Shown one piece after another: positions 51,252 through 53,474 of a DNA stretch of 64,000 nt (its first letter is position 1; each line of letters begins with the position of its first letter). The notes under the pieces are model-generated. The model did no database searches and was not told the DNA's origin. It saw only the letters and a program-made list of their open reading frames with translations. A program made the translations under genes and the position numbers. The stretch lies in NCBI GenBank assembly GCA_963777605.1, contig CAVZRV010000007.1, positions 704,001 to 768,000 on the forward strand, written 5' to 3'. The stretch is from an uncultured Acidobacteriota bacterium (GTDB lineage Bacteria > Acidobacteriota > UBA6911 > RPQK01 > JAPXNP01).

Positions 51252-52268
51252 ATGGCATTCCTGCGCATCCCGAGACCTTGGGAGAAGATACGTGAGTCGG
51301 AGGTTACCCCGGAATCGCTCTACCTGAATCGGCGCGATATCCTTCGTCGGTTCGGCATCGCCGGCCTTGGAGCGACAGCGGCGGCAGCCAGCCTCGGAAA
51401 GGCACTGGCCCAGGAGACCCGCCTCGGCCCTTACGGTCATGTTTCAAGATTCTGGTCCGAGAAGTGGTCCGACCTGTTCCCGGCGACGAGGGATCAGCGT
51501 TTCAAGGTCGAGCGCGGCATTACCGACGAGCGTATCGTTGCGGGCTACAACAACTTCTACGAGTTCTCGCTCAAGAAACAACAGGTCAAGGAACGGGTTG
51601 ACCAGTTCGAAGTCCATCCCTGGCAGGTGGAAATCGCCGGGGAGGTTGAGAAGCAGGGGACCTTCGATCTGGACGACCTCATCCGGATGGGAAATCCGGA
51701 AGAGCGGGTCTACCACCTCCGCTGCGTCGAGGCCTGGTCTGCCAACGTTCCCTGGACCGGCTTTCCACTCTCTCAGTTGATCGAGAAACTCAAGCCCACG
51801 GCAGACGCGCACTTCGTGCGGTTTTTCACACTGCTTCGTCCTTCGCAAATGCCGACCCAGCGCAACGGCGGCTATGGGTACCCCTGGCCTTACTACGAAG
51901 CACTCCGCATGGACGAGGCCATGAACGAGCTCGCCCTGCTGACATTTGGCGTCTACGGGCATCCGCTGAACAAGCAGAACGGGGCTCCGGTCCGCCTGAT
52001 TCTGCCCTGGAAGTTCGGGTTCAAGAGCATCAAGTCAATCGTCAAGATTGAGTTCGTGAAGAAACAACCAGGGACTTTCTGGACCGACATTTCCAGAGAA
52101 TACGGGTTCTATGGTAACGTCAATCCCGGGTTCGACCATCCAAGATGGAGCCAGGCATCCGAGCTGTTCCTCAACACGAGGGAACGGATACCCACAAGGC
52201 TCTACAACGGTTACGGGGAGTTTGTAGGCGGGCTTTATGATGAAACGGAACGAAAGTACTTCTACTAG
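51252..52268 (+). CDS. msrP: Protein-methionine-sulfoxide reductase catalytic subunit MsrP (molybdoenzyme)
   Basis: SEVTPESLYLNRRDIL Tat signal, YNNFYEF, HLRCVEAWS (Mo-ligand Cys), QNGAPVRLILPWKFGFKSIKSIV, HPRWSQASE, NGYG. Confidence 0.95.
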   Translation: MAFLRIPRPWEKIRESEVTPESLYLNRRDILRRFGIAGLGATAAAASLGKALAQETRLGPYGHVSRFWSEKWSDLFPATRDQRFKVERGITDERIVAGYNNFYEFSLKKQQVKERVDQFEVHPWQVEIAGEVEKQGTFDLDDLIRMGNPEERVYHLRCVEAWSANVPWTGFPLSQLIEKLKPTADAHFVRFFTLLRPSQMPTQRNGGYGYPWPYYEALRMDEAMNELALLTFGVYGHPLNKQNGAPVRLILPWKFGFKSIKSIVKIEFVKKQPGTFWTDISREYGFYGNVNPGFDHPRWSQASELFLNTRERIPTRLYNGYGEFVGGLYDETERKYFY

Positions 52269-52836
52269 GTCAAGGTTCCTTCCCGGGACGAGGTTGCTCG
52301 GCACCGTTCTGTCCTGGACGGGACTGGTCTTCTTCCTGCTGTGGGCTTGCCCCGGCTGTTCCACCGGATACTCCCCGGAAGGCGAACCAATCGACATGAA
52401 AGCCCTGCGGGAGTTCAAACCCTTCGAGTTGCCCGACCTCTCCGGCCAGACCCGCCAGCTTTCCGATTACCTCGACAAAGTGACCCTGGTTTCTTTCTTC
52501 TTTCCCACTTGAGGGACCTGTAATGCGGAGTTGCCGCAATTGCAGAAGCTCTACGATCAGTACTCCAGCCAGGGAATGAAAATGGTCGCCATCAACGTGA
52601 TTCCCGAGCAGGACGACATGGTGGCACCCTGGCAGGAGAAAAACGGGTTCACCTTCCCGATTCTGGTGGGAAGCGACTCAGACTCCATCATGAACGACTA
52701 TCGCATGACGGCAGCACCGCTGAACTTTCTGCTCGATTCCGAGGGTAATATTCTCAACAGGTTTGAAGGCTACGCGCCGGGCGGAGAGAAAGAGATCGAG
52801 AAAGACATCCGTCAGGCGCTGAAACTCGACTCCTGA
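52237..52836 (+). CDS. TlpA/ResA-like redoxin, probable selenoprotein (UxxC), probably exported or a lipoprotein
   Basis: ORFs 52237..52512 and 52531..52836 are in the same frame; reading through TGA 52510-52512 gives FELPDLSGQTRQLSDYLDKVTLVSFFFPT-U-GTCNAELPQLQKLYDQY...AAPLNFLLDSEG (199 aa). Exact start uncertain (ATG 52237/52240 or TTG 52294). Confidence 0.85.
52518..52545 (+). promoter_or_regulatory. Putative bacterial SECIS element
   Basis: Hairpin CTGTAA-TGCGG / loop AGTTG / CCGCA-(A bulge)-TTGCAG; loop begins after a 16-nt spacer from the UGA with G at loop position 2. Confidence 0.7.
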
Positions 52837-53474
52837 TCCGGCTGGTTCAACCGGTCGAGGATACCGAGAATTTCAGGGAAGGCGTCGATCTGGAAATCGG
52901 CCCCAACCGGGTCTTCTCCAACAAACCCGTAGCGACAGAAGATGGATCGGCATCCAGCCGTCCTGGCCATTTCAATATCCGGGGAATGGTCACCCACAAC
53001 GAGAATCTCTTCCGGCGCCAGATTATAGCGGGCCTGCAGGAACTTCACCGGGAAGGGGTCGGGTTTCTTAGCCGAAAAAGTATCACCCCCAGCCACAAAA
53101 TCGAACAGGTTCCCCATATCATGCTCCCGAAGCATGGCCCACACCAGAACCTCGGGCTTGTTCGAGACGATGGTCCGGACCGCCTCCACCTTGGGAAGCG
53201 TCTCCATCACTCCCGGGTAGGGTGTTGCCCGATCGCCCGGGTGCGCTTCGTAATACTCCATGATCACGGGCAAAGCGGTCGCGACATCGACCCCTGCATC
53301 TGCAAACGCTTTCTGAGCGAGGACCTGCACCCCAAAACCGACCATCGCGGTGACCGATTCGATGGAGTGAAGACTCAACCCGAACTCCCGGCGGGCATGG
53401 TTCACAGCGTCCGTAATGTCCTGTCGTGTATCGAACAGGGTGCCGTCAAAATCAAACGTGACTACTTTGATCAA
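52812..53474 (-). CDS. HAD-superfamily phosphatase (phosphoglycolate phosphatase-like)
   Basis: FDFDGTLFDT, VSNK, KKPDP, VGDHSPD, YGF. Confidence 0.9.
   Translation of the reverse strand: MIKVVTFDFDGTLFDTRQDITDAVNHARREFGLSLHSIESVTAMVGFGVQVLAQKAFADAGVDVATALPVIMEYYEAHPGDRATPYPGVMETLPKVEAVRTIVSNKPEVLVWAMLREHDMGNLFDFVAGGDTFSAKKPDPFPVKFLQARYNLAPEEILVVGDHSPDIEMARTAGCRSIFCRYGFVGEDPVGADFQIDAFPEILGILDRLNQPDQESSFSA

Follow-up and report, generated by a model that had tools for sequence, protein, structure and literature searches.

The closest described relative of this locus is the MsrPQ (YedYZ) system of E. coli and Rhodobacter sphaeroides, in which MsrP requires MsrQ, as stated in the reviews PMC13488963 and PMC12525009. 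The E. coli enzyme needs a donor near -250 mV, a potential too negative for quinones and for most membrane haem proteins (PMC12525009). The first-pass annotation of the locus had taken it as established that MsrQ is fed by respiratory-chain electrons. This premise is contested by the same 2025 paper, which argues against quinones as the MsrPQ donor and for NADH/Fre instead. MsrP-annotated proteins without MsrQ have been reported in acidophilic archaea, where another electron source was suggested (PMC8773360). These proteins were assigned by orthogroup and may be more distant members of the sulfite-oxidase family, and the available part of that study describes neither a donor nor a bacterial branch. 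Thiol-based relays of the type CcdA/DsbD - Etrx/TlpA - MsrAB are described for Streptococcus pneumoniae, Haemophilus influenzae and Neisseria (PilB); in Streptococcus and Haemophilus, CcdA and lipoprotein thioredoxins that are separate proteins serve exported MsrAB (PMC13488963). Redoxins with a UxxC motif are a listed selenoprotein class (PMC13188914, Table 1).

The locus described here combines features of these systems. With MsrPQ it shares an MsrP equivalog with its twin-arginine signal, Mo-ligand Cys and active-site motifs, whereas no msrQ was found, the C-terminal tail and the KxDP loop are absent, the protein is placed among the msrQ-less rows in the tree, and the next gene encodes a redoxin. 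The relays have in common with this bacterium a thioredoxin-fold lipoprotein, DsbD and an exported MsrAB free of thioredoxin, but here the redoxin adjoins msrP, not msrAB or dsbD, and carries selenocysteine (Sec). The redoxin resembles the predicted UxxC families Redoxin (PF08534), Prx-like (PF00578) and thiol-disulfide isomerase-like (cd02966) in its fold, its UxxC motif and the existence of Cys homologues; unlike here, no link to a molybdoenzyme is made in the available part of that source (PMC13188914), and the redoxin scores below the cut-offs of named subfamilies. Each part is of a known kind, and the pair of msrP with a Sec-redoxin is restricted to one family. A literature search found no msrP-redoxin pair.

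The window, which is the whole stretch of 64,000 nucleotides that was analysed, belongs to a 6.7-Mb genome (labelled G000; 96.7% complete, 53 contigs), and the closest named msrP loci are those of Acidobacteriota assemblies. The msrP gene (51252..52268, + strand) encodes 338 amino acids. It is followed on the same strand by the gene of a UxxC, TlpA/ResA-like redoxin, a probable lipoprotein (52237..52836). From its first ATG, this frame overlaps the msrP stop region by 32 nt; the start would be the ATG at 52237 or at 52240, both of which lie within the msrP 3' end. A convergent gene for a HAD phosphatase (phosphoglycolate-phosphatase-like; 52812..53474, - strand) comes next. It lies outside the module, as does the upstream gene of an exported protein with a 3-keto-disaccharide hydrolase domain (PF06439; 50068..51216, + strand), a member of a shuffled block. 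The first-pass annotation had described a same-strand gene for an exported-looking thioredoxin-fold protein overlapping or abutting msrP and then a convergent HAD gene, and both descriptions are confirmed. A scan for promoters and terminators returned 0 promoter-like sites; terminator-like sites numbered 8, where chance alone would give 6.4. The msrP and redoxin genes probably form one candidate transcription unit.

The window MsrP matches the NCBIfam MsrP equivalog NF003767 at 393.7 bits (cut-off 207), and its residues 91-330 align to E. coli YedY/MsrP (1XDQ) at 7e-77. In an alignment of 29 MsrPs, R27 and R28 of the twin-arginine signal, the R-C-V-E ligand motif and the Mo ligand C158 are invariant. 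The genome also holds moaA. Judged by its sequence, the gene encodes a true MsrP of an MsrQ-less branch, and homology suggests that the protein still reduces protein methionine sulfoxide at its Mo site. C158 is the single Cys of the MsrP core. As this one Cys is the Mo ligand, the protein offers no acceptor for ordinary disulfide exchange. Some MsrQ-less MsrPs (L007, L009, L010 and L012) have a Cys directly after the Tat hydrophobic stretch, which suggests that they are Tat lipoproteins. A Sec-containing MsrP was considered for five MsrP matches of the phylum that had been flagged with an internal TGA, and was rejected: Cys occupies the ligand position in all five, four have no stop inside the tblastn match, and the stop of the fifth is the terminal one. 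Another molybdoprotein of the sulfite-oxidase family, a more distant one, is encoded elsewhere in the genome (L158, G000:C10:559829-560899); its N-terminal part contains a hydrophobic segment, and no cytochrome gene was seen in its locus.

The absence of msrQ, first noted for the window, extends to the whole genome. Neither a PF01794 search nor an alignment search found msrQ in G000, and the best match of a custom MsrQ HMM, run with filters off, had an E-value of 1.8; no ferric-reductase-family protein was found with PF01794 or this HMM. Nor is this peculiar to the locus. Among 61 relatives, 39 carry msrP, with an adjacent msrQ in two and none in 37; in nine of the 39, the ferric-reductase proteins found are all more distant ones, and 28 show no PF01794 match. 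In a sample of 301 genomes of the phylum, msrP is present in 125, of which 79 have a strong msrQ match. A further 36 genomes (completeness not given) with msrP but no adjacent msrQ gave no match in 27 cases, a weak one in three and a strong one elsewhere in six; in two of these six, msrQ adjoins a second, tail-bearing msrP. The genomes without a match include assemblies of Verrucomicrobiota, Planctomycetota, Calditrichaceae, Latescibacterota, Rhodothermales and Sumerlaeota.

This distribution has a counterpart in the protein itself. In a FastTree of 110 rows, all 44 msrQ-adjacent rows and five others lie on one side, and 61 rows without msrQ, the window MsrP among them, on the other; this is the only tree method used, support at the split is weak (67), two rows were removed as duplicates, and L116 represents a fragment. 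Of the msrQ-adjacent loci, 64 of 69 encode a C-terminal tail, as do 5 of 85 others (four loci unparsed); for three of these five, msrQ lies at another place in the genome. The KxDP loop occurs at 55/69 and 2/85 of these loci, respectively. The tail counts largely mirror the two branches and are not independent events, and the tail is a feature derived here, not from the literature. Tail and loop, typical of MsrQ-linked MsrPs and missing from the window MsrP, may be considered candidate MsrQ-docking elements. From these comparisons, an MsrQ-less MsrP branch that spans several phyla and lacks the MsrQ-linked tail is a firmer result than any role of the redoxin. No bacterial branch of this kind was found in the literature search, although the founding 2015 distribution analysis may list msrP-only genomes.

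The redoxin frame contains a single in-frame TGA (52510..52512, + strand), within a UxxC motif (U92). With the TGA read through, the translation scores above the Pfam cut-offs for AhpC-TSA and Redoxin. Its hydrophobic stretch ends in a Cys that is kept in orthologues, as in lipoproteins. The protein falls below the cut-offs of the NCBIfam families ResA, TlpA, DsbE, WAxxUGC and TUGYCR, the best being ResA with 69.3 bits against 170, so that it may work like a TlpA/ResA protein and yet stands outside these named subfamilies. The TGA is conserved in all nine family orthologues, and homologues have Cys at the aligned position. Downstream lies a SECIS-like stem-loop (52518..52544, + strand; apical loop 52529-52533), whose 5-nt loop starts 16 nt after the UGA and has a G at position 2. 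This geometry fits the bacterial SECIS model of PMC13188914. The hairpin codons are kept in 19/19 TGA-bearing homologues (one compensatory stem change) versus 0/7 Cys homologues, and the signature occurs only twice in the whole of G000, both times in UxxC redoxins. Taken whole, the 66-nt segment folds no better than its shuffles (z -0.31). The genome holds selA, selB, selD and tRNA-Sec (selC), the whole set for which a genome search had been proposed. The suspicion, raised from the window alone, that the protein is a Sec redoxin is thus borne out: as a prediction, a genuine UxxC selenoprotein, with a TGA that is not due to chance, is well supported.

Sec is optional in this protein, since at least 16 full-length CxxC orthologues exist; the database behind this count under-represents Sec forms, because gene callers truncate them. 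A second UxxC selenoprotein of the genome (G000:C30:48555-50000) is a lipoprotein that combines a long, helical N-terminal part with a C-terminal TlpA domain and has the same SECIS pattern, and long Sec and Cys forms resembling it occur across the order. The selD gene (G000:C7:931111-932034) has an in-frame TGA of its own, in a UxxK motif.

The redoxin orthologue is found in nine of the 76 genomes of the order, all in one family (f1). Within the 16 genomes of this family, nine have msrP, nine have the redoxin and seven have both. In all seven, which represent four genera, the two genes are adjacent. The first ATG of the redoxin lies inside the msrP 3' end in four pairs, and the other gaps measure 6 nt, 66 nt and about 0.1-0.16 kb. 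Each gene is also found alone. The redoxin occurs without msrP in G001 (99% complete) and G006, and a Cys form lies in the block aroC, 3-keto, redoxin, HAD on two near-identical metagenome contigs (L212/L213), directly behind the 3-keto-disaccharide hydrolase gene and with no msrP. Conversely, msrP was found without the redoxin in G003 and G009, both fragmented, with contigs that end 441 and 411 nt downstream. Sister MsrPs that are 59-68% identical have no redoxin neighbour in G018 and G048; in the latter (93% complete, 10 contigs), a redoxin profile search at 1e-15 gave no match. One database protein (P0012) carries about 31 residues of the MsrP N-terminus fused in frame to a CxxC redoxin orthologue, and is either a relic of an msrP deletion or an assembly join.

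The flanking genes served as a synteny control. In the family, aroC lies near msrP in 8 of 9 msrP-bearing genomes, and 8 of 9 redoxin-bearing genomes have the HAD gene close to the redoxin. As both are nearly as syntenic as the pair, the adjacency can be explained without a functional link, and much of the msrP-redoxin synteny is gene-order inertia. It had been proposed to check whether the adjacency is conserved and coincides with the absence of msrQ. The conservation holds (7/7), and the lack of an adjacent msrQ is general among close relatives with msrP (37/39). At loci without msrQ in general, flanks of 1.5-4 kb were searched around 88 of them, and the redoxin orthologue was present at six, all from family f1. 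A distant redoxin lies about 2 kb away at one further msrQ-less locus, and at 3 of 70 msrQ loci. Clustering of the open reading frames around 85 loci without msrQ revealed no redox partner common across lineages.

A search for ccdA/dsbD in the genome had also been suggested. G000 encodes a full-length DsbD, which could feed a periplasmic redoxin, together with an exported MsrAB without a fused thioredoxin. DsbD is encoded in 69 of the 76 genomes of the order. An exported methionine sulfoxide reductase (MsrP, MsrAB or both) is present in all nine redoxin-bearing family genomes, and the two of them that lack msrP both have exported MsrAB. In three paired genomes (G004, G005 and G011; 85, 93 and 84% complete), the MsrA and MsrB found were all of the cytoplasmic type. 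As exported MsrAB was thus not found in 3/7 paired genomes, it is not the client of the redoxin everywhere, and four genomes (G003, G009, G013 and G048) have exported MsrAB and no redoxin. A TlpA-like HMM search of G000 retrieved 10 frames; with so many, the clients of the redoxin are not assignable from sequence. As for other carriers, NOX-like ferric-reductase/NAD-binding proteins occur in three of the seven paired genomes (G002, G005 and G010), and a PF01794 search gave no match in the other four, G000 included. Cytochrome b (PF01292) gave one clear and three weak matches in G000. TlpA/ResA-type proteins lie in the range near -250 mV, and the DsbD-TlpA route is a low-potential source in the periplasm.

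We read the locus, tentatively, as two envelope-repair genes in one probable transcription unit, whose products would act in parallel and not as enzyme plus donor. The redoxin would be a membrane-anchored periplasmic disulfide reductase that, by analogy with the known relays, draws electrons from cytoplasmic thioredoxin via DsbD. It would pass them to Cys-based clients, such as exported MsrAB or oxidised envelope cysteines, by thiol/selenol-disulfide exchange, with Sec substituting for its attacking Cys in some lineages only. MsrP would be recharged by a low-potential donor common to the MsrQ-less branch. Of the two roles that the first-pass annotation had offered for the redoxin, action beside MsrP in envelope repair is therefore the likeliest. 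The unbroken adjacency of the pair, the occurrence of each gene alone, DsbD and exported MsrAB in G000, and an MsrP devoid of a second Cys count for this reading; the three paired genomes in which no exported MsrAB was found, exported MsrAB without the redoxin and the synteny of HAD and aroC count against it. The same synteny speaks for a possible, if rather doubtful, explanation in which msrP and the redoxin were neighbours in an aroC/HAD/traB block of the family ancestor and have no functional link. The msrP-free block of L212/L213 and the confinement of the pair to one family fit such an inheritance. It is harder to reconcile with flanking genes that were inverted or moved while msrP and redoxin were never separated, or with the fact that both products are exported redox-repair proteins; the P0012 fusion also suggests the same gene order in a further lineage, though it is perhaps an assembly join.

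The other role initially proposed, that of electron donor to MsrP in place of MsrQ, is not supported: msrP without msrQ is the rule (37/39), the redoxin accompanies it at only 6/88 loci, the sister MsrPs of G018 and G048 lack it, and it persists without msrP. The redoxin is thus probably not a dedicated MsrQ substitute. More generally, it is unlikely that this or any DsbD-fed TlpA-like protein is the two-electron donor of an MsrQ-less MsrP. We know of no sulfite-oxidase-family molybdoenzyme with a thioredoxin-fold donor, nor did the literature search find one. The potential of TlpA/ResA-type proteins is in the required range, G000 yielded no ferric-reductase-family protein, DsbD is widespread in the order, and the tail linked to MsrQ is missing, all of which would suit such a donor; the presence of a near-universal DsbD is, however, non-discriminating. 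The low potential that MsrP demands, out of reach for quinones (PMC12525009), would suit it too. A selenolate or thiolate would have to reach the Mo centre via the substrate channel, a route that is thermodynamically plausible and that we consider just as improbable. Binding of a thiol to the Mo of E. coli MsrP has been reported, but the thiol-bound Mo(V) form is described there as inhibited and unable to turn over (PMC9370002, PMC10673323). MsrP also has no relay Cys, the flanks searched around the 88 loci without msrQ are free of such an orthologue in 82 cases, and the 93% complete G048 combines a sister MsrP with no redoxin-profile match. A predicted complex of mature MsrP with the Cys orthologue P0004 (58% identical, used as a stand-in) scored 0.00 in two runs, a value that, without folded controls, counts neither for nor against donation. 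Cofactor loading is expected in the cytoplasm, ahead of Tat export, which speaks against a very unlikely accessory function, in which the redoxin keeps the Mo-ligand Cys reduced or strips an inhibitory thiol while a different carrier, such as a cytochrome or a NOX-like ferric reductase, delivers the electrons. The single Cys of MsrP and the known thiol-inhibited form (PMC9370002) would give such a function a target, and the NOX-like proteins of three paired genomes a carrier; against it, the remaining four have no PF01794 match, and in both branches the majority of MsrPs lack a neighbour of this kind.

Beyond this family, about one third of the msrP genomes in the phylum sample (46/125, with no strong msrQ match), as well as genomes of other phyla, have an intact-looking MsrP and no msrQ found, which raises the question of the supplier of electrons at roughly -250 mV. 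It is conceivable, albeit improbable, that the whole MsrQ-less branch (Acidobacteriota, Verrucomicrobiota, Planctomycetota, Calditrichota, Latescibacterota, Rhodothermales and Sumerlaeota) is recharged by an NADPH-Trx-DsbD-TlpA-like pathway, to which family f1 would have added a dedicated Sec/Cys lipoprotein behind msrP. If the redoxin were the donor, the thiol-based and molybdenum-based routes of protein repair, described as independent, would be joined.

Other members of the branch show features of their own. At five loci from two families (L198, L203, L204, L206 and L207), an msrQ-less msrP is convergent with a gene for a CxxC thioredoxin-domain protein of about 700 amino acids, which we take to be YyaL-like; this adjacency is probably gene-order inertia. 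A second subclade of MsrQ-less MsrPs (L013-L030, L208 and L209) is marked by a basic extension at the C-terminus, conserved within the subclade, at which some partner might dock. In three genomes (G355, with loci L038 and L312; G080; G101), a canonical msrPQ coexists with an msrP of the MsrQ-less type, a hint at different roles of the two branches.
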